64,000 nucleotides of DNA from Malacoraja senta (taxonomy: Eukaryota), in the NCBI GenBank assembly GCA_038087875.1, contig CM075989.1, positions 2,046,001-2,110,000 of the forward strand, written 5' to 3'. A program made the position numbers and the translations under genes. The stretch's first letter is position 1; each line of letters starts with the position of its first letter. Below the pieces are notes generated by a model. The model did no database searches, was not told the DNA's origin, and saw nothing but the letters and a program-made list of their open reading frames with translations. Shown one piece after another: positions 42,086-52,895 of the stretch.

Positions 42086-42128
42086 TTGTTTCATTTGATT
42101 GAGTTTAGTTTAGTTTAGAAATAAACTA

Positions 42129-42589
42129 AATGACCTTCCCATCCATGCTGACTTGAACAATCTGCCCAACATGTGCCTGAAGTCCCGCAAACCCTTTTGG
42201 TCTTCCGTTAAATCCCTGGAAGACTTTCATTCCAAGACTGAGTGGTGCAGAACCCGGAAAGATGCCAACACCAACAACAGAGAGGTCATCACAGACCGCA
42301 CAGTAAAACCACCGGGATTTGACCTCCATCGAGAGCAATGGCTAACCCTGTACAGAATCCGCACCCTCCATGCAAGAACCTGCATCAGTGGGGGATGACA
42401 GACAGCCCCCTGCTTGCGACTGCGGACATCCAGACCAGACCATCCCACACATAGTGAATGACTGCTCACTGAGGCTTTTCCCTGGGGGTATCAAAGCCGT
42501 CCACCCAGTAACTGATGCTGTCCTGGCCTGGATGTCTGCCCGAGGCCTACAACTTTAGGCTGTGCACGTCATACGCAAGAATAAAAGAA
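42129..42589 (+). mobile_element. Vingi/Ingi-clade LINE 3' fragment (C-terminal CCHC zinc knuckle and tail)
   Basis: PPGFDLHREQWLTLYRIRT and CDCGHPDQTIPHIVNDCSLRLFPGG..AVLAWM motifs. Tail CATACGCAAGAA. Possible TSD AAATA(A/G)ACTA at 42119 and 42590. Confidence 0.8.
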
Positions 42590-44239
42590 AAATAGACTAT
42601 TCCGTTATTTTCACGCTCCCACCTCTTTGTTCAGCTCCCCCCCCCCTACAACTACAATGTCTGAGTAAGTTCCTGACACAAACGTTGCCTATCTATGTCT
42701 TCCAGAGATGCTGCCTGACCCACTAATTTACTGCAGCACTCTGTATTTGTTTTCTTCCATAAAGCAGCATCTGCAGTTCCTTGTGTCTAAGTAAAGTAAG
42801 TTGGTGGGTGGGGGGTGAGGGGAGAGAGGGTGGGATTGTTGTGTTATTTATTGTAGATCGGTTAGACAGATGCCTAGACAAATGCTGTGTGATTGTCAGA
42901 TTTTGTTGCTGAATTGTTCCTTTGGATTAACAGATTACAACAAAATGCCATGGTTGCCTCTCCTTTAGTCAAATTAGAACAGGCAGGAATGAATCCACAG
43001 GCCTAGCCTTGCATTGCTGCATTGATCTGCATGGCTTAGTATTTCAGTGAGTGCAGCAATGAATAGTTTGAGGAATTACAGATGGAGACATGCGATGGCT
43101 GACCGACATTGCTGTTTTGCTTCAGTATTTGGCCTATTGATCTGTAGTGGCTGCACGTGATTCACTGCTCTTTACAACACCAACGATCAAGCAGAGCAAA
43201 GATAAAATCATTATGGCTTTTTTATTCGATAGTTAAAGGTCTTTGTTTTTCATAAAATAAATCCAGTGAACAAAACACAGGTAAAATTGAGGAAGAAGGG
43301 GCTGGGGATTGTCACTTTGGCAATCAGCACGGCGGGGCAAACAGGGCAGCCTGCTGAGGTATTGATCATTGATGATTCAGTTGCTTGTTTGTCAATAAGT
43401 GACGCAATCAATAACCAACAGGGTGCTACATTTAGATAGACACAAAATGCTGGAGTAACTCAGTGGGACAGGCAGCATCTCTGGAGAGAAGGAATGGGTG
43501 ACGTTTCGGGTCGAGACCCTTCCTCAGCCAACTGACTCAAGGGAGGGGTGAGCAGCATTTGTTACAGATTTTGATTGAGCTTAACGTTTTGGAGGATGGA
43601 ATGTCAGAGCCTAGTGCAGAGTCCGTTGGAACAGTCAAGTGTAGAGTGACAACGGTGTACGTGAGGGTTTCAGCAGCAGACAAGCAGCAACTGGGCTGCA
43701 GGCCGCCAGCTTCACCAGATTCTAATATGGGAACTCTTTGAGTTTAGTTTAAGCTGTGCATTAGTTGATAAGGTCAGCAATGGTCTGTTTCCCACATCAG
43801 GGAGACGTGACTGATCTGAGGGGAAGTTCTGACCTGACATGAAAGGAGCATTTAATCCTGATCCATTGAAGGGGCATGATTATTGGATTACAAGTCAAAA
43901 TCAATTGCTCATTGTTGCAGCACCAGGTTGTAACTCCAGCCTCTTGAGCAGCATTTGATCAACAAAGCCGTAATCACTGAAGACTGATGACACTTGCTAC
44001 AACACGGACGTTTTGAGTGTGTTACTAAACGGCATGTGCTCAGCAGTGTCAATACTCAGCAGCCACAAGTACAGAATTATTTATCCCTGTGAGGCAGTGG
44101 TCAGTTATATGGATGGGGAAGGTTTCGAGGGATATGGGCTAAATGGGACTAGTTTAGATAGGGCATCTTGGTCGGCATGGACACGTTGATCTGAAGGCCC
44201 TGTTTCCGTGCCACATTACTCTACAATAAACTTTATAGA

Positions 44240-44552
44240 GGGGTGGTGCAGCGGTAGAGTTGCTGCCTCACAGCGCTAGAGACTCGTGTTAGATCCTGAC
44301 TATGGGTGCTTGTCTGTACGGAGTTTGTACATTCTCCCCGTGACCCACGTGGATTTTCTCCGGGTGCTCCGGTTTGCTCTCTCACACTCCAATGACGTAC
44401 AGGTTTGTAGGTTAATTGGTTTTGGTAAATTTGTAAATTGTTCCTAGTGTGTGTAGGATAGTGTTAGTGTGCGGTGATCGCGGGTCAGCGTGGACTCAGT
44501 GGGTCGAAGGCCGTGTTTCTGCACTGTATCTCGAAACTAATCTAATCTAATC
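44240..44552 (+). mobile_element. HE1-type SINE
   Basis: Head, V-domain and tail. Confidence 0.8.
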
Positions 44553-44599
44553 TGCAAAAACTGGGAGAAATGAAGATCTCAGAGTCCAACTTTATATTG

Positions 44600-44734
44600 T
44601 AGGAAGGAACTGCAGATGTTGGTTTTAAACGAAGATGGAAAAAAAATGCTGGAATAACTCAGCGGGACAGGCAGCATCTCTGGAGAGAAGGAATGGGTGA
44701 CGTTTTGGGTCGAGACTCTTCTTCAGACTCAATA
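44600..44734 (-). mobile_element. Penelope-terminus mini-element
   Basis: TSD TTTATATTG at 44591-44599 and 44735-44743. Confidence 0.75.
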
Positions 44735-45944
44735 TTTATATTGAACTTTATATTTATGGAGAGTTCATTTATGCACTTTAAAGCTGAGCATTGTGATTAG
44801 AATATCACAATATCAGGAATCACGGGATATGGGGAGAAAGCAGGAACGGGATACTGATTTTGGATGATCAGCCATGATCATATTGAATGGCTGTACTGGT
44901 GCAAAGGGCCAAATGGCCTACTCCTGCACCTATTTTCTATGTTAAAATGTTCATTCAGGACCTACGGCTGGGCAAACCTTTTGCCCACAAATATCAATAG
45001 CAGATTCCAGTGCAACTTTTATCATCTTCAAGTAACATTCAATAAGTATTTTTAATTCTTCATCCAGTAATCATTTTCCTTTGTTGCTCCAGATTGCAAC
45101 TTGAATTACTAATCAGGTCAACACTGCTCATTAAACACCTCCTCATCTTGAAAGCATTGCCACACATTATTAAACGAATGAAACAAAACAAAAAGTATTT
45201 TTTTTCTCCGTTCAAAATGCCGCAAATTGTCTGGAACAAATTCTACTCGGACTTTAATCCTGACTATGTGTGGTGTAATAATTTGATATGGAACTCACTT
45301 CTCTTGTGTTTTAATTTGGGGATCAATGTGCTTAATAACCAGCTTAACATAAACTGCTGGATGAATCCAACCCGTCAGGCAGCATCTTTGGAAGGGGGAA
45401 CTGCAGATGCTGGTTTGCACCAACAAAATGCTGGAGTAACTCGGCAGGGCAGGCAGCATCTCTGGAGAGAAGGAATGGGTGACGTCTCACGCCGAGACCA
45501 TCATCTCAAGAGGGTCTCTGCCTGCCCCGCTGAGTTACGCCAACATTTTGTGTCTATCTTCAGCAACTTTGGAGGGAGTTGACAGACGATGTTTTGGGTC
45601 GGGACCCTTCTTGAGAAGATTCTAGCATCTTCAGTTTCTTGTGTCGCATGTTAATAATTTGCAGTTCCCTCTTAAAATAGTGAAAATACCAAAAGGATGG
45701 ACTTTCATTGATACGGTGCTCTTCACATCTCATCCTAATGTGTCTAACAGCCAGTGAAATACCTTACACTGAAAACTTGAGGGAAATGCGGTAATACAAT
45801 TTGACACAGCAAGCTCCCTTGGGCAGCAATATTACAACAACTAGATAATCTGTTTTAGTAAGGTAGAAGAGGTAAATATCTCTGAGAAAACTAACGGTTG
45901 CTCCCCTAATCTTCTTTAAAATATCCCCATGGGATCTCTTCATC

Positions 45945-46255
45945 AAGGTGGCGCTGCGGTAGATTTGCTGCCTTACAGCGCCAGAGACCAGGGGTTCAAT
46001 CCTGACTACGGGTGCCGTCTGTACGGAGTTTGTATGTTCTCCCTGTGTCAGCGTGGTTTTCCTCCAGGTTTCCTCCTAGACTCCAAAGATGCACAGGTTT
46101 GTAGGTTAATTGGCTTTGGCAAAATTGTACATTGTACCTAGTGTGTAGGATAGTGTATATGGTGTATATGTACCTAGTGTGTATGGGGTGATCGCTGGTC
46201 AGCAGGGACTGGGTGGGCCGAAGAGCCTGGTTCTGCACTGTATCTCTCTAGTCTA
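45945..46255 (+). mobile_element. HE1-type SINE
   Basis: Head, V-domain and tail. Confidence 0.75.
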
Positions 46256-46524
46256 GATGGGCCTGTTCGTGTTTGATCTAATGACCTTTGCCTCACCCAT
46301 CTCCAGCAGTTTGTGTCCCTGTGTTATAAGCCTTCAGAACAACTCTGAAATGTCTCCACTGATCTCGACGTAAATGCAGGACATAAAATGAATTTGTTCT
46401 GATGCCAGGAATTATGTGGAAGGTCATTACGATGTCAACAGCCCAACTGACCACAGCTGGACGTGTGATGAAGAAGTTTAGTCCGGACTTATTATTGTTT
46501 TAGGTTTAGGTTTATTATTATTAA

Positions 46525-46943
46525 AAACATAGAAACATAGAAAATAGGTGCAGGAGGAGGGCATTTGGCCCTTCGAGCCAGCACCGCCATTCATTGTGAT
46601 CATGGCTGATCGTCCCCTATCAATAACCCGTGCCTGCCTTCTCCCCATATCCTTTGATTCCACTAGCCCCTAGAGCTCTATCTAAATCTCTCTTAAATCC
46701 ATCCAGTGATTTGGCCTGCACTGCCCTCTGTGGCAGGGAATTCCATAAATTCACAACTCTCTAGGTGAAAATGTTTTTTTCTCACCTTAGTCTTAAATGA
46801 CCTCCCCTTTATTCTAATACTGTGGCCCCTGGTTCTGGACTCGCCCAACATTGGGAACATTTTTCCTGCATCTAGCTTGTCCAGTCCTTTTATAATTGTA
46901 TATGTTTCTATAAGATTCCCCCTCATCCTTCTAAACTCCAGTG
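46525..46943 (-). mobile_element. CR1 3' fragment
   Basis: ORF 46693..46980(-) reads LEFRRMRG..GLDKLDAGKMFPML. Confidence 0.85.
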
Positions 46944-47285
46944 TCACGTATACTGAGACAAATCTGATAATACTGTACATATATACATCAAGCCAAACTC
47001 AAGTACAACGGGTAAGCAAAGGGGAAGATACAGAGTGCAGAATTTGGTTAACAGCATCGTGGTGCACCAGCTCCAGAGACAAAGTCCAATGTCCACAATG
47101 GGGCAGAGGTGAATTGGACAGTATCCTGGATTATGGAAGGACTGTGGAAAAGCCCCAAGAGAGGGTAAGAAGCTGTTCCTCAATCTGGTGGCGTACACTT
47201 TCAAACTTCTGTATCCTCTGCCCAATGGGAGGGGTAGGCTGAAGGATGTGAAAGGTCATTGATTATATTGGCTGGTTTCCTGAGG
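46944..47285 (-). mobile_element. Rex1/Babar-type 3' fragment
   Basis: Antisense translation GRGYRSLKVYATRLRNSFLP. Confidence 0.7.
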
Positions 47286-48351
47286 TAGCAGTGTTGGTGG
47301 CAGCACGGTGACGCAGTTGACGCGGACTCGGTGGGCCGAAGGCTCTGTTTCCGTGCTGTATCTCTAAAGTCTAAGGTCTAAAATATAAGTGCAGATGGAA
47401 TAAATGATGGGTGATGGACTGGGCTACATCCACAGCTCTCTGGGATTTCTAGTGTTCCGAGGCAGAGCTGTCGCCAAGCCAAGCCATGATGCAGCCCAAC
47501 AGTAGGCTTTCCACAGAGCAAACTGCAGAGGTTTGTGGGAGTTGTTGGAGATACCTTGACTCCTGTCACATCTACGGAGGGTATCTCCAAGCCCTGCATT
47601 CCGACCCAGTGGAAGAGGATCGCTCTTCAGCCACATCTACCCTTGTGAACCCACACCTCATCCAGGAATCGAGTTGCAATGTAACAGTGGAGACTATTTA
47701 CAGACATTACTACCATCGCTGCCAGCTTCTCTTCTCTTCCCTGAACATCTGAGACTGTAAGCGATTATTATGCATGAAAAGAGCAGCTCATTAACCATTA
47801 ATTGAGTGTGGCTGCAGATAATTAATTATTTTAAGCCTGATTAGATGGGAAAAGGAGAATAGTTTTCCTCTGTTGACATCTTTCTTCATTTTTATTACAT
47901 TCCGTTTAAAAAAATAAATCCTCACACCACACAATGGAGCTTGAACATCCGATGCTGGGAATATAATGCGCAGGATTAAACAGTGAACAGTGCTTGATGA
48001 TGTTTTTAACCAACTGATTATCTGTCGGAGACGGAATGTAAACCTAGATGAAGTCCTGCAGGTAACGATCCACTGCCCACAGCAGCACCTTCCAGGCACA
48101 CAATCAGTAATATTTAATCAGGTACACAGTGGTAGTCGGGGAACTAGAATGGTGGACGGAGAGAGAAGGAAAGCAAGCGTTACTTGAAGCTAGGGAATCG
48201 TTCTCTGACTAGTTTCATTGTACTGATTAAATATAACTCTTGATAGACGCAAAAAGCTGGAGTAACTCAGCGGGACAGGCAGCATCTCTGGAGAAATGGA
48301 ATAGGTGACGTATAGGGTCAAGACCCTTCTTCAGACTGCCATATTACTGAT

Positions 48352-48897
48352 TGTGTGCCCCTAATCTGAGGAAGGACATCCTTGTGATTGAGGCAGTGCG
48401 GCGTAGGTTCACGAGATTGATCCCTGGGATGGCGGGACTGTCATATGAGGAAAGATTGAAAAGACTAGGCTTGTATACACTGTAGTTTAGAAGGATGAGG
48501 GGGGATCTCATAGAAACATATAAAATTATAAAAGGACTGGACAAGCTAGATGCAGGAAATTTTTTCCCAATGTTGGGCGAGTCCAGAACCAGGGGCCACA
48601 GTCTTAGAATAAAGGGGAGGCCATTTAAGACTGAGGTGAGAAAAACGTTTTCACCCAGAGAGTTGTGGATTTGCGGAATTTCCTGCCACAGAGGGCAGTG
48701 GAGGCCAAATCACTGGATGGATTTAAGAGAGAGTTAGATAGAGCTCTAGGGGTTAGTGGAATCAAGGGATATTGGGAGAAGGCAGGCACGGGTTATTGAT
48801 TGGGGAAGATCAGCCATGATCACAATGAATGGCGGTGCTGGCTCGAAGGACCGAATGGCCTCCTCCTGCACCTATTTTCTATGTTCTATGTTTCTAA
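48352..48897 (+). mobile_element. CR1 3' fragment
   Basis: ORF 48495..48737 and (TTCTATG)n tail. Confidence 0.88.
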
Positions 48898-50097
48898 TGT
48901 GCTGCCGTGGGTGGAGATTCCATTACAAATATTACTGTTTGTATGCCTCGTTGTCATCTTCCCTTCAGCTAGCAATGAACCATTCTACATTTCCTTGATC
49001 ATCGTCCCCTTTGATCTGTGTTTCCACCTTACCCTGCCATATCTCCATGTCTCCCTCTCCCCTGTCTCTCAGTCTAAAGAAAGGACTCGAACTGAAACAT
49101 CACCCATTCCTTCTATCCAGAGATGCTGCCTATCCTGCTGAGTTACTCCAGCATTTTGTGTCTATCTTTGGTGTAAGCCAGCATCTGCAGTTCATTCCTA
49201 CTCAGAGTTCCAAACTTTGCATGAACCCATTTGTAAAATGCAGCATAATCAAGGACTTGTCACACCCTGCCCACTCCCTCTTCTCCCCTCTCCCATCAGG
49301 CTAAAGGTATAGAAGTGTGAAAACGCACACCTCCAGATTCAGGGACCGTTTCTTCCCAACTGTTATCAGGCAACTGAATCATCCTACCACAACTAGAGAG
49401 CAGTGCTGAGCAAATACCTACCTCATTGGAGACCCTTGAACTATCCTTGATCGGACTTTGCTGGACCATTTTAGTTTAGTTTAGAGATACAGCGTGGAAA
49501 CAGGCCCTTTGGCCCACCGAGACCGCACCGACAAGCGATCTCCACACATTAACACTATCCTACACACTAGCAACAATTTACATTTATACCAACAAACCTG
49601 CACTTCTTTGGAGTGTGGCAGGAAATCGGTCTTGGACAAAATCATGACCTCCTATGAAAATAATGTACAGCATCTGCATACTTGGTTAGTCGTGGAGTCA
49701 TAGATCGATACAGCATGGAAACAGGCCATTCTACACTAGTCCCACCTGCCTGCGTTTGGCCCATATCTCTCTAAACCTGTCCTATCCATGTATCTGTCTA
49801 ACTGTTTCTAAAACGTTGGGATAGTCCCAGCCTCAACTACCTCCTCTGGCAGCTCGTACCATAGAGCCATCACCCTTTGTGTGAAAAGGTTACTCCTCAG
49901 ATTCCCATTAAATCTTTCCCCCTTCACCTTAAACCTATATCCTCGATTCCCCTACTTTGGGCAAGAGACCCTGTGTGTCTACCCGATTAGAATTGCTTGG
50001 AACACTAATTCTTGGGTTCGATCCTGTTTAAAATGAGTGCCGGGAAATGTTGAGAGGAAAATTGGTGGGTTGTCATCTGATGAATTATAATTGATTG

Positions 50098-50192
50098 TAG
50101 ACAAAAATGCTGGAGAACTCAGCGGGTGAGGCAGCATGTATGGAGTGAAGGAAATAGGCAACGTTTTGGGTCGAGACCCTTCTTCAGACTTG
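50098..50192 (-). mobile_element. 95-bp Penelope-terminus mini-element with 14-bp TSD
   Basis: TSD ATTATAATTGATTG at 50084-50097 and 50193-50206. An empty paralogous site lies at 53346-53359. Confidence 0.88.
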
Positions 50193-50308
50193 ATTATAAT
50201 TGATTGATCGATTGAAAGATACTGTCCAAGCCGACCATCGACCATTCGTTCACACCAGTACTATGTTATCACGCCTTTGCTTCCATTCCCGAAATCAGGG
50301 AATCAGGG

Positions 50309-50362
50309 GGGGTGGGAGATTGCAACCTTCACGTGGTCCACCCTGTTTCAACGAATGCAATC
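50309..50362 (+). ncRNA. Putative minimal HDV-like (CPEB3-type) self-cleaving ribozyme
   Basis: P1 GGGGTGG/CCACCCT with a G1-U wobble, P2 GATTGCA/TGCAATC, P3 ACC/GGT, L3 TTCACGT, J4/2 CGAA. It begins at the first base after the TSD. Confidence 0.8.
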
Positions 50363-50422
50363 AACCTGGCGTGCACAATTAAATAAGATCAAATAGAACA
50401 AGTTGTCCTACAACTTTAGGCT

Positions 50423-51928
50423 CCTGGCACTCACTATAAGCAACTACAGACCCATTTCTAAACTGCCTTTCCTCTCAAAAGCCCTTGAAAAGGTAATTTT
50501 AAGTCAACTTATACCTTACCTTCACCAAAACACTATCTTGGAAACTTTCCAATCAGGTTTCAGGGCTCACCACAGCACAGAGTCTGCCTTGTTGAAGGTA
50601 CATAATGACCTACTGCTCACCGTTGACTCCGGCGACTGTGCAATTCTGCTCCTTCTTGACCTCAGCGCAGCATTTGATACTGTCGACCATACCATCCTAA
50701 TTGACCGTCTCCGGTATGGGGTTGGTATTGATGGCACTGCCCTGAGCTGGTTCATCTCCTTCCTCAAAAGTAGGAGTTTCTCGACTAACATAGGCAACTC
50801 TTTCTCCTCCCCACCTAATCGCTGCTGTGGGGTTCCACAAGGTTCCATACTTGGCCCCATTCTCTTCTCCCTGTATATGCTCCCCTTAGGCCAAGTCATT
50901 GAAAGGCACAACATTTTCTTCCATTGCTACGCAGACGATACACAACTCTATCTCCCCCTGAAGCCCCAAAACCAATCAAATCTGTTTAACCTACCCACTG
51001 CCTCGAGGATATAAAGTGTTGGATGGCCCAGAACTTCCTCCAACTAAACGAGAGTAAGTCTGAGGTCATCCTTCTCGGCCCCTCGGACTCAATCTAAATG
51101 ATAGCAGGCAGCCTTGGAAGCCTTACCCCACTACTCAAACCTTACGTCAAAAACCTTGGCGTGATATTTGACTCAGCACTGAAATTTGACAAACAAGTCA
51201 ATGCCGTGGTAAAAGCTAGCTTCTTTCAGCTTCGGACGATAGCTAAAATAAAACAATTCCTCCAGTTTGATGACCTCGAAAAGATCATCCACACATTCAT
51301 CTCCTCCCGCCTAGATTACTGCAACTCCCTTTACACTGGCATCAGCCAATCTTCCCTGTCCCACCTGCAACTGGTCCAAAACGCCGCAGCGAGACTCCTG
51401 TCGGGCACCCGAAAAAGGGACCACATCACCCCGATCCTGGCCTCTCTCCACTGGCTCCCTGTGCGGTTCCGTATAAACTTCAAGATCCTTCTCCATGTCT
51501 ACAAAGCCCTCAATGGGCTTGCCCCCACCTACATAAAAAGTCTTCTCACCCACCACTCCACCTCCAGGCCCCTCAGATCGGCCGACTTCGGGTTGCTGAA
51601 TATCCCACGGTCTAGGCATAAGCTCAGGGGCGACTGCGCCTTTGCGGTTGCAGCCCCTAGACTGTGGAACAGCATCCCCTTTCCCATCAGAACTGCCCCC
51701 TCCATCGACTCTTTTAAGTCAAGACTAAAAATGTATCTATACTCTCAAGCCTTTCCTGACGTCCTCTGAGTGAGGGCTACATGTATATATGTATGTAGTT
51801 TGTTTTGTTTGTATAACAATAGCTATTCTTATAACAAATGTAAAGCACTTTGGCCAACGAGAGTTGTTTTTTAAATGTGCTATATAAATAAATGTGACTT
51901 GACTTGACTTGACTTGACTTGACTTGAC
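50423..51928 (+). mobile_element. 5'-truncated L2-clade LINE (RT pseudogene)
   Basis: NYRPISKLPFLSK, QSGFR, LLDLSAAFDTVDH, GVPQGSILGP, CYADD, RLDYCN and HITPILASLHWLPV motifs. Frameshift near 51000, stop at 51095, (GACTT)n tail. Confidence 0.93.
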
Positions 51929-52895
51929 TAAGCTGTGCACGCCATACGCAAGAAGAAGAAGGGAATCAGGGAAGGTATCTGTTGGTCCTTGGATCACTAA
52001 TTCTCCATTACATTTGGTTAGCAGACTCCATGCCATCTGGATGATTCCTGACCTCAGATGACTTGTGGAAGGGAAGTTCATAGTAATAATCAGAGGATGA
52101 AGCAAGCAGAATCTGCGTCCTGACAACACGGGTGAAACAGCAGAAAGGGGGATAATAGATTGCCTCAGCCAGCAAATGTAGCGGCTCCTCTAATAATTGC
52201 TCAAGGTGGGAACAAACTATTGTTGCATCTGCGCGATGGCAAAGTTTCTATTATCAGATACGTATTAAAAAGAGAAAAAGAAACAAGGTAAATATGAACA
52301 TTCAATCTGCATTTAAGGGCTTATATTGATCTTTAAAAGCTTTATGGTTTAGTTAATTCTCTTCCACTGCAGGATTAATGGCCACAGCTGCCATGACAGA
52401 TGTGAGAAAGCGAGGTCTTGCTCGGCTGTGTTTCAGCCGAGGTGATTAACCAAGACCCTGTCTGCTTGCATTGCTCATGAGGGGGGTGAAGGGTCCATGA
52501 TATTATTGGAAGCAGAGCAACATTCTCCCATCAAATCTCTACCCTGGATCTAACCTGCCCATTTGCCTCACTGCACTTTGCTGGTGCAGGGCTTGGCATC
52601 CTTGCCAACATCGCTTGCTAGCGTCACTCTGGGTGCTGTCTGTGCAACAGTAACCATTGCTGGGCATCTGCAAGATGTTCTCATGTGCCTAAGGAGATGG
52701 AAAGTTTACCACATACTTAGGAATTCCAATTCTCCTTGAATGTACAAGGGGACTGACATTGATATAGTAACAGCTCTGAGAGGCACGCTTCTTGTACAGT
52801 TGTTTGGCTTGATTGTATAGTATTATCTGATTTCATTGAATAGCACACAAACAATAGCTTTTCACTGCTTGTGACAATAATAAATGTAAACCTAA

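Follow-up and report, generated by a model that had tools for sequence, protein, structure and literature searches.

A short element of Malacoraja senta with a predicted ribozyme head as a candidate two-ended derivative of a Vingi-type LINE

The window, a 64-kb stretch of the Malacoraja senta genome, contains a short element (SINE-A) that combines a predicted HDV-like ribozyme with the tail of a LINE (LINE-A), a fragment of which lies in the same window. What kind of element is SINE-A, and how would its RNA be made and copied?

Two LINE ends in one short element

SINE-A (~135 bases) spans positions 50309-51960 and is split in two by a LINE insert (Table 1). The insert ends in a pentanucleotide-repeat tail, has a 5-bp TSD (4/5 matching) and is presumably a member of the CR1/L2 group, judging by its C-terminus. 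A second copy of its 3' end is found at 14679-15061. The initial annotation had claimed that the rejoined SINE-A and the LINE-A fragment share a 3' end that includes the LINE stop codon. The last 36 nt are indeed identical at 35 positions, comprising 16/16 between 42546-42561 and 50407-50422 and, by direct sequence comparison, 19/20 between 42562-42581 and 51935-51954 (BLAST of an overlapping 26 nt of the right half gives 92%). The stop codon (42556-42558) lies inside the matched stretch. The identical join is present in 28 uninterrupted genomic SINE-A copies.

Table 1. Coordinates of the features discussed in the text
Feature	Position	Strand	Basis or remark
SINE-B, second independent short family with a predicted ribozyme head	11704-11871	+	Weak RF00622 match
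5'-truncated LINE-A copy (Vingi-type by architecture and host range)	42131-42587	+	ORF C-terminus, stop, 3' arm, degraded tail
Left TSD of SINE-A	50298-50308	+	11 bp, identical to 51961-51971
Predicted minimal HDV-like ribozyme, SINE-A head	50309-50362	+	Descriptor match
5' arm of predicted end-to-end helix	50367-50377	+	LINE-derived, element nt 59-69
Remaining LINE 5' part (to ~nt 77), ~22 nt of junction sequence, first 16 nt of LINE 3' part	50378-50422	+	BLAST to L106, junction count
Unrelated 5'-truncated LINE inside SINE-A tail	50423-51929	+	1.5 kb, RT-encoding, PF00078 E 5e-26
SINE-A 3' half, made up of the 3' arm (51934-51944), a conserved 5-nt motif and the (AAG)n tail	51934-51960	+	
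Right TSD of SINE-A	51961-51971	+	11 bp, encloses whole split element

The 5' part of SINE-A is also shared with the LINE. In BLAST alignments, nt 2-77 match the 5' end of a near-full-length LINE (L106) at 70/76 positions and nt 100-138 agree with the 3' end of that LINE at 35/39. Because both of its ends are common to the LINE, SINE-A is, on sequence grounds, a SIDE: an internally deleted, bipartite derivative of a Vingi-type LINE. It has a LINE-homologous 5' part, a 3' part with tail, and amplification as a unit with TSDs. SINE-A is of an already known class and is not a SINE with a borrowed tail. The shared ends and tail suggest that it is moved in trans by LINE-A's protein.

The LINE-A fragment aligns to positions 3014-3465 of L106 and shares 88-91% identity with the 39 other genomic copies that match it best. 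Its homology begins at 42131, not at 42129 as earlier given. The C-terminus of its ORF bears a CxC-x7-H-x4-C motif, and the fragment has a probable 10-bp TSD (42119-42128 and 42590-42599, 9/10 matching). Domain calls in pieces of one copy (L107) and in an intact relative (P0001, 72% identical) indicate that LINE-A has a single ORF with APE and RT within ~3 kb (Pfam accessions PF14529/PF03372 and PF00078); RNase H was not found in either. In a tree without named Vingi, Ingi or I-group references, the LINE-A RT joins (99/98) a clade with Anolis, Branchiostoma and Strongylocentrotus proteins of 36-40% identity. Our assignment of LINE-A as Vingi-type follows from architecture and host range, not from a named reference sequence. 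Vingi LINEs are described as ~3.1 kb long with one ~1,000-aa APE and RT ORF and no RNase H, and non-autonomous derivatives of them are known (PMC5786205; PMC13708176).

We identified 6,426 exact genomic matches to SINE-A head 18-mers and 2,557 to a 30-nt SINE-A junction (0 for each control). Corrected by 51/86 and 5/19, these counts correspond to ~10,000 SINE-A copies.

The predicted ribozyme head and the 5' end

A descriptor search identified a 54-nt HDV-like fold without P4 at the SINE-A 5' end. This is the sole descriptor match within the window, and 0 matches arose when 322 kb of related loci was shuffled three times. Predicted P1 (50309-50315/50338-50344, with a G1-U wobble), P2 (50318-50324/50356-50362), P3 (50325-50327/50335-50337) and a P1.1 of one pair make up the nested double pseudoknot of HDV-like ribozymes, with L3 at 50328-50334 and the predicted catalytic C (C44) at 50352. 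The head also has the conserved L3 and the C-N-A-A in J4/2 that are consensus rules of HDV-like ribozymes. No Rfam family matches the SINE-A head, and no P4-less Rfam model appeared. The same fold, anticipated by the initial annotation on the LINE 5' end, is carried by LINE-A, and pairs are formed at 7/7, 7/7 and 3/3 positions of P1, P2 and P3 in both elements. Across 14 heads, 92.8% of P1 and P3 cells are paired, and P1 and P3 covariation is 0.62 versus 0.24 after shuffling (reached by 0/500 shuffles).

C44 is present in 81/84 and 67/73 SINE-A copies (two samples), the P1.1 pair is retained, and the common variants at nt 8, 32, 42 and 45 leave the fold in place. The whole fold is intact in only 28 of 68 ungapped copies. 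J1/2 of SINE-A is 2 nt long, and another HDV-like ribozyme was slower with short linkers (PMC4908430). Five distinct heads precede related ORFs in metagenome contigs, without exception on the sense strand, and are scattered over the RT tree; the descriptor matched in only 7 of the 23 metagenome loci that leave space for a head (hand count). In our judgement, self-cleavage is very probably real in source copies.

SINE-A 5' ends cluster at G1, as had been predicted. Among 90 copies chosen by the junction alone, not by their 5' end, 68 begin at nt 1 and 11 at nt 2. The TSD directly adjoins G1 in 53 of 74 copies and is 8-16 bp long in 66 of the 74.

If the head also served as an internal promoter, like L1Tc Pr77, transcription would start at nt 1 and cleavage would only trim or stabilise the end; the clustering at G1 is compatible with either model. 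L1Tc and NARTc, the nearest relatives whose head has been tested, combine promoter and ribozyme activity within the first 77 nt (PMC4035085), and SINE-A retains 77 nt of LINE 5' sequence. However, a capped start should leave a G at position -1 (for cap-G, see PMC2912911). A G occupies position -1 in just 11/74 and 7/70 copies (two samples), so a cap-G excess is absent, and the 23 nt past the ribozyme are explained by the 5' arm of a predicted helix between the two ends. We therefore regard the internal promoter as rather improbable, and lean slightly towards upstream host promoters as the supply of transcripts, in which case SINE-A could be freed from read-through transcripts by self-cleavage, as the initial annotation proposed. 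RNA contigs include SINE-A copies with upstream flank attached (24 runs, all contigs). One back-joint in putative RNA contigs hinted at tandem heads (a retrozyme or circle), which were found at none of 20 loci examined, of 58 candidates.

A predicted helix between the two ends

SINE-A was initially described as a minimal ribozyme, a spacer and an RT-recognition tail. The ribozyme, as a predicted fold, and the LINE tail stand, but the neutral spacer does not: nt 55-77 are LINE 5' sequence and contain an arm with a complementary counterpart immediately ahead of the tail. In an intact copy, nt 59-69 and nt 114-124 form a predicted 11-bp helix (0/500 shuffles as good). Complementary arms of 9-13 bp occur across families and differ between them in their letters. 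Cognate arms average -13.1 kcal/mol versus -6.4 kcal/mol for non-cognate arms (permutation p 5e-5, 10 families), and 8 of 11 elements reach p<0.05 by shuffling. The windows for this analysis were set after four families had been seen and are partly post hoc; the end helix passes in four of six held-out elements and fails in two (mg264 and mg291). The first LINE-A copy tested also failed, as did one of three retested. Hairpins within the tail alone are no better than shuffles, and the whole-element folding energy of SINE-A is not significant in a model without pseudoknots (z -1.45).

We identified 18 distinct LINE copies in which the head is inverted. The inverted piece ends at nt 1-11 in 16 of these, and a TSD is present in 12 of the 16 copies examined. 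Between the pieces, 340-2,450 nt are missing in 17 of the 18; breakpoints of twin-primed L1 are usually adjacent. Short microhomologies or filler are seen at many of the inversion junctions. Twin-primed, 5'-inverted L1 likewise has an inverted 5' and a direct 3' segment within one TSD (PMC2912911), but the inverted piece in these LINE copies is the extreme 5' end.

The end complementarity could be a side effect of template switching, or of fold-back, in reverse transcription, with the inverted heads arising by cDNA fold-back and not by second-strand priming. The microhomologies and filler would fit such an origin, as would a 6-nt palindrome contained in the family A arms and the lack of a significant duplex in 3 of 11 elements. 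Against this, the 3' arm keeps its place directly before an A(C/T)ACG-like motif and the tail in families with unrelated arm sequences. SINE-A subfamilies moreover gained A61G and then C59T, two propagated substitutions of one extra pair each, and the helix grew from 8 to 11 bp. We consider such a side effect unlikely, and think it fairly probable that the two arms do pair in vivo and that mobilisation depends on them.

These considerations lead us to propose that the first ~77 bases of a Vingi-type LINE were joined to its last ~40 and that the product was copied thousands of times. The SINE-A 5' end would likely be freed at base 1 by the minimal HDV-like ribozyme, and the arm behind the ribozyme would pair with the pre-tail arm, a likely handle for the LINE protein as it copies the RNA into new sites. 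Both RNA ends would be held at the target site, which would explain why short derivatives have arisen repeatedly and why so many LINE copies have an inverted head.

Relation to known elements and to the CPEB3 ribozyme

R2 SIDEs of Drosophila resemble SINE-A in that they combine a ribozyme head with a LINE 3' end, with an internal deletion and precise 5' junctions (PMC3414825). They are ~530 bp long, rare and found only in 28S rDNA (PMC3414825), whereas SINE-A is ~135 bp and dispersed; unlike them, SINE-A has no P4 and would depend on an APE-type LINE. Trypanosomatid NARTc, RIME and SIDER are short derivatives in a sister clade (L1Tc/ingi) with a ~77-nt 5' HDV-like ribozyme, in some cases shown to be active, that includes P4 and also serves as promoter; RNase H is present in autonomous L1Tc (PMC4035085). 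An end-to-end helix goes unmentioned for these elements in at least part of that paper (PMC4035085), whereas SINE-A has a predicted one. Minimal HDV-like (drz-Mtgn, theta) ribozymes share the P4-less double pseudoknot and a catalytic C in J4/2 with the SINE-A head. About 99% of these are described from gut phages, and a search of human, mouse and protist genomes gave none (PMC10879173), whereas here one is predicted on an animal retroposon.

The LINE J4/2-P2 region holds an overlapping stop-start, TAA-TG, with its ATG in frame with the ORF (also in L266 and L327). J4/2 contains TAA in 16 of 18 LINE copies; SINE-A mostly has GAA. R2, like LINE-A, keeps a J4/2 stop codon that its derivatives lose (PMC3414825). 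Such an in-frame stop-start would suit a fold kept as a structural element (for protein binding, an exonuclease block or a translation start) that no longer cuts in SINE-A. Consistent with this, selection on C44 left no replicated sign: a deficit of C44-to-T changes in an analysis of CpG decay (3/84 copies, p 0.03, post hoc) did not recur in a second sample (5/73), and we dropped this argument. All SINE-A subfamilies, however, keep C44, L3 and every helix yet lose the stop codon, and the same pattern separates R2 from its SIDEs, which cleave (PMC3414825), making a purely structural role quite unlikely. It is highly improbable that SINE-A is a conventional Pol III SINE, tRNA-like at its head and with the tail of a LINE: the element has no run of four T, but its head is the 5' end of the LINE itself, no tRNA gene was found in four loci, and A and B boxes are no better than shuffles, in agreement with the earlier claim that a Pol III promoter is absent.

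Other Vingi-type LINEs of this genome have heads that exceed the cut-off of the Rfam CPEB3 family (RF00622). We found 39 of 59 scored loci above it (best 64.2 bits), and sister Vingi-type heads score 43-64 bits versus a cut-off of 35. The top-scoring heads precede an APE-RT ORF, which is open for 1,014 codons in L417. Outside P4, a published gharial Vingi end, compared by eye, agrees with the CPEB3 consensus at 52 of 54 positions. The HDV-like head probably goes back to the ancestor of the clade. The CPEB3 L3 is identical to that of SINE-A, SINE-B and LINE-C; the CPEB3 ribozyme is single-copy and intronic with P4, whereas SINE-A has other P1-P3 letters and no RF00622 match.

SINE-B has a predicted head with a 6-bp P1, CPEB3-type P3/L3 and no P4, a predicted 12-bp end-to-end helix and a 13-bp TSD, and its tail has 1,171 exact matches. 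Its partner LINE was not found in a protein search with the LINE-A N-terminus, at 30 of the 1,171 tail loci or among the CPEB3-headed LINEs.

CPEB3-like heads of related elements likely point to the origin of the mammalian CPEB3 ribozyme, which, from these sequence matches, is quite probably a stranded copy of such a Vingi-type head. The main text of a paper on ancestral CPEB3 forms contains neither 'origin' nor 'transpos' (PMC8233481). Overall, we think it likely that SINE-A is a two-ended Vingi derivative with a ribozyme-made 5' end and an end helix as copying handle, and that CPEB3 is a stranded head. Evenly balanced, in our judgement, is the broader proposal that Vingi LINEs use a closed-loop RNA, in which a self-cleaving ribozyme makes the 5' end and a 5'-3' helix beside the conserved pre-tail motif serves as handle, that the 135-nt RNA is a complete cis unit and that mammalian CPEB3 is a domesticated head.

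If true, Vingi would join the ribozyme-bearing LINE clades, of which six, without Vingi, are listed in PMC5786205, and the P4-less HDV-like ribozyme would gain a defined role in an animal genome. Kojima left open why few LINE clades spawn two-ended derivatives (PMC5786205). The end-to-end helix would provide a testable answer to why they arise from few clades only; end pairing is unmentioned in the main text of PMC5786205 and PMC13708176. Engineered Vingi donors use both UTRs, and SINE-A is a candidate minimal donor RNA for Vingi-based gene insertion, where both are needed (PMC13708176). Finally, Vingi-type heads would, if the proposal is true, provide a concrete source for the CPEB3 ribozyme.

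SINE-A and its partner LINE

We identify SINE-A, an element of ~135 nt with a predicted ribozyme head, as a real, abundant and minimal short internally deleted derivative (SIDE) of a Vingi-type LINE. The copy in the window consists of two halves parted by an unrelated 1.5-kb RT-encoding LINE, and an 11-bp TSD encloses both halves plus the insertion. The initial annotation had claimed that SINE-A shares its 3' end, LINE stop codon included, with a Vingi-like fragment. This proved correct: the left half matches the end of the fragment of the partner family, LINE-A, at 16/16 positions (50407-50422, window comparison) and the right half at 19/20 (51935-51954, read from the window sequence), with the stop codon (42556-42558) inside the common stretch. 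The join is seen uninterrupted at 28 loci elsewhere in the genome. A stepwise upstream walk from the window fragment yielded a near-full-length LINE-A copy (L106:666-3466), whose 5' end agrees with SINE-A nt 2-77 at 70/76 positions and whose 3' end agrees with nt 100-138 at 35/39. Because both its ends match LINE-A ends, SINE-A is, by sequence comparison, an internal-deletion derivative of a LINE-A-type LINE. The core of the earlier proposal, a minimal parasite made of ribozyme, spacer and RT-recognition tail, stands. Its 'spacer' and its release from read-through transcripts only both need amending; nt 59-69 are the 5' arm of the predicted end helix.

Pieces of another LINE-A copy (L107) encode APE and RT domains, with no RNase H found in them. 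The closest LINE-A match among database proteins is an intact APE+RT ORF of 1,019 aa (72% identity), and the remaining matches are mostly ~1,000-aa ORFs on ~3.2-kb contigs. This single-ORF layout fits the Vingi architecture in the accessible text of PMC13708176. LINE-A groups with lizard, lancelet and sea-urchin proteins in an RT tree; because that tree contained no named reference, the label 'Vingi' is by architecture.

Exact head motifs of SINE-A number 6,426 in the genome and exact junctions 2,557, giving ~10,000 copies after correction. Only ~20 LINE-A copies retain the 5' region. Among the matches listed, SINE-A sequence occurs in 24 public runs from 14 studies, under nine organism labels plus a metagenome. 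Other short LINE-A derivatives are joined elsewhere (after nt 91, after nt 96 or at one further site) and keep the predicted ribozyme and both arms. Tail-less SINE-A copies (6/7 without 10 nt of P3/P1) run into a CT-rich minisatellite and have common upstream flanks; they seem to have spread as passengers of another repeat. The LINE that interrupts the 3' arm of SINE-A in the window presumably belongs to the CR1/L2 group.

Positions of the elements in the window or at retrieved genomic loci (L numbers)
Feature	Position or loci	Strand	Description
SINE-A	window 50309-51960		split copy
LINE-A	window 42131-42587		5'-truncated fragment
SINE-B	window 11704-11871; L082-L105, L353-L382	+ (window copy)	P4-less ribozyme-type head
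LINE-C	L413-L420, e.g. L417:633-3674	minus (L417)	young Vingi-type, CPEB3-class head including P4
At least three further Vingi-type families	L387, L394-L400, L404, L406-L408		degraded, CPEB3-class heads
Copies with deletions in the predicted pseudoknot	L179, L202, L204, L215, L428, L447, L463, L475, L497, L500
Other short LINE-A derivatives	L134, L136, L138-L143, L466-L467, L496
Tail-less SINE-A copies	L429, L430, L452, L491-L494
LINE copies, presumably CR1/L2 group	window 50423-51929, 14679-15061		young, pentanucleotide tail

The predicted ribozyme head

SINE-A nt 1-54 are predicted to form an HDV-like double pseudoknot without P4, whose cleavage is likewise a prediction; Rfam models gave no match on this head. 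Of the 2,557 junction matches, the first 90 were picked irrespective of 5' end; 68 align from nt 1, 11 from nt 2, 4 from nt 3-5 and 7 from farther inside, the clustering at G1 that the initial annotation had expected. A TSD was identified for 66/74 distinct copies that have G1, and it adjoins G1 in 53. This set shows no excess of G at -1 (11/74), nor does a second (7/70; from 78 distinct copies among the first 100 head matches, previously sampled ones excluded), and for this reason we see no sign of a reverse-transcribed cap. T precedes G1 in 39/74 copies of the first set (flank background 34%) and in 37/70 of the second, mostly within the TSD, and possibly reflects a non-templated A pairing with the target.

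In a comparison of 14 heads drawn from several families, pairing of P1 and P3 reaches 92.8% and covariation 0.62, versus 0.24 in shuffled and at most 0.19 in slid controls; five of these rows are family A (SINE-A plus LINE-A), and one of the five supplied the structure. A descriptor of the fold, with 0 matches in shuffled sequences, found it upstream of the ORF at 7/77 metagenome loci, or 7/23 with room (5 distinct). Frequent SINE-A variants lie in J1/2, the loop in place of P4, a variable J4/2 base and one base of P1 where both variants pair, and the full fold is kept in only 28/68 ungapped copies. An initial hint of selection on the predicted catalytic C44 did not replicate in a second copy set. 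Scattered copies carry short deletions inside the predicted pseudoknot, perhaps from RT skipping structured RNA.

The J4/2-P2 region of LINE-A contains an overlapping stop-start (TAA in 16/18 copies, ATG in frame). The J4/2 stop is lost in the main SINE-A subfamilies and is absent from LINE-C, another Vingi-type family. Its loss in SINE-A relative to LINE-A resembles R2, for which the accessible text of PMC3414825 reports a stop kept in the LINE and lost in its SIDEs.

Predicted paired ends and inverted heads

When one intact SINE-A copy is folded, nt 59-69 pair with nt 114-124 in a predicted 11-bp helix. Eight base pairs of it occur in 2/3 retested LINE-A copies, and SINE-A subfamilies lead from LINE-like (17 copies) through A61G (12) to A61G + C59T (28), each change adding one pair. 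The 5' arm lies a few bases past the ribozyme and the 3' arm stops at an A(C/T)ACG-like motif that precedes the tail. The same layout, with unrelated letters, is found in SINE-B (a second ribozyme-headed short family), LINE-C, three further families of the genome and metagenome elements. Mean duplex energy in 10 families is -13.1 kcal/mol for cognate versus -6.4 for non-cognate arms (permutation p 5e-5). With arm windows fixed after families A, B, C and F were viewed, 8/11 elements reached p<0.05 by shuffling, the exceptions being a degraded LINE-A copy and the metagenome elements mg264 and mg291; 4/6 held-out elements passed. Wider windows gave a similar outcome (7/9 at p<0.05, one at 0.052).

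Head-bearing LINE-A copies, de-duplicated by hand, comprise 18 distinct copies with the head inverted relative to the 3' part, 4 long direct, 1 direct copy missing a large segment and 3 complex or of unsettled arrangement; the inverted proportion is biased because the sample was drawn by searching with the head plus an internal LINE region. In 16/18 copies the inverted piece begins at nt 71-462 and reaches back as far as nt 1-11, a 10-14-bp TSD surrounds the whole copy in 12/16 examined, and breakpoints are adjacent in only one. These pieces stop at the ribozyme start and all contain the 5' arm, give or take a few bases. Such pieces suggest that LINE RNA would end at G1, with its 5' part close to the target site during insertion. 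In three runs guessed to be RNA (X1, X6, X12), contigs show an inverted head fused to the LINE around L106:3064-3076 and depth rises 3' of the join; these may represent an inverted-head family that was amplified in other species.

Vingi-type heads and the CPEB3 ribozyme

SINE-B numbers at least 1,171 copies, with a P1 of 6 bp and a predicted end helix of its own (12 bp); a search for its autonomous partner found none. Of the eight LINE-C copies retrieved, one carries an uninterrupted 1,014-codon frame with tandemly repeated head pieces upstream. In the degraded families several heads are inverted relative to their 3' parts, and one family is CPEB3-like in the P4 stem too.

We found 51 CPEB3-type head matches among 59 scored loci in this genome, 39 of them over the cut-off of the Rfam CPEB3 model (RF00622; top score 64.2 bits); 14 control genomes gave none. 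The best matches are 5' ends of LINE-C; among named proteins, those closest to LINE-C are from lancelet, sea urchin, fish, lizard and insects. One metagenome head scores 55.6 bits on RF00622, and the RT tree places the CPEB3-like metagenome element as sister to LINE-C (99/92). For gharial Vingi-2, the accessible supplement of PMC5786205 prints the initial 74 nt, which agree by eye with the Rfam CPEB3 consensus at 38/40 positions up to the P4 base and 14/14 after. In the accessible parts of that paper the term 'CPEB3' is absent and the listed ribozyme-bearing clades do not include Vingi. Its supplement also holds an alligator element (SINE2-1_AMi) whose Vingi-derived body resembles the CPEB3 consensus, P4 stem included, and lancelet and sea-urchin Vingi ends with the same head type.

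Elements of the SINE-A kind are already known (R2 SIDEs, NARTc/RIME); its novelty probably lies in the P4-less ribozyme fold, the predicted paired ends and the family link to the CPEB3 ribozyme. In the sources compared, which comprise the papers cited here plus PMC4494074, PMC7761336, PMC10274809, PMC3391268 and two preprints, no accessible passage connects Vingi with a ribozyme or with CPEB3. Ruminski 2011 and Kojima 2011, like subscription papers and patents, could already contain part of the findings. The novelty of end pairing is less well checked than the rest; a term check of the accessible main text of PMC5786205 and PMC13708176 gave no mention of it.

Because P1 and P2 letters vary freely from family to family, the near-identity of Vingi-type heads to CPEB3 implies descent. 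Vingi traces persist in humans, according to the accessible text of PMC5753468. The broad range of hosts with such heads favours Vingi as the likelier donor of the CPEB3 ribozyme.
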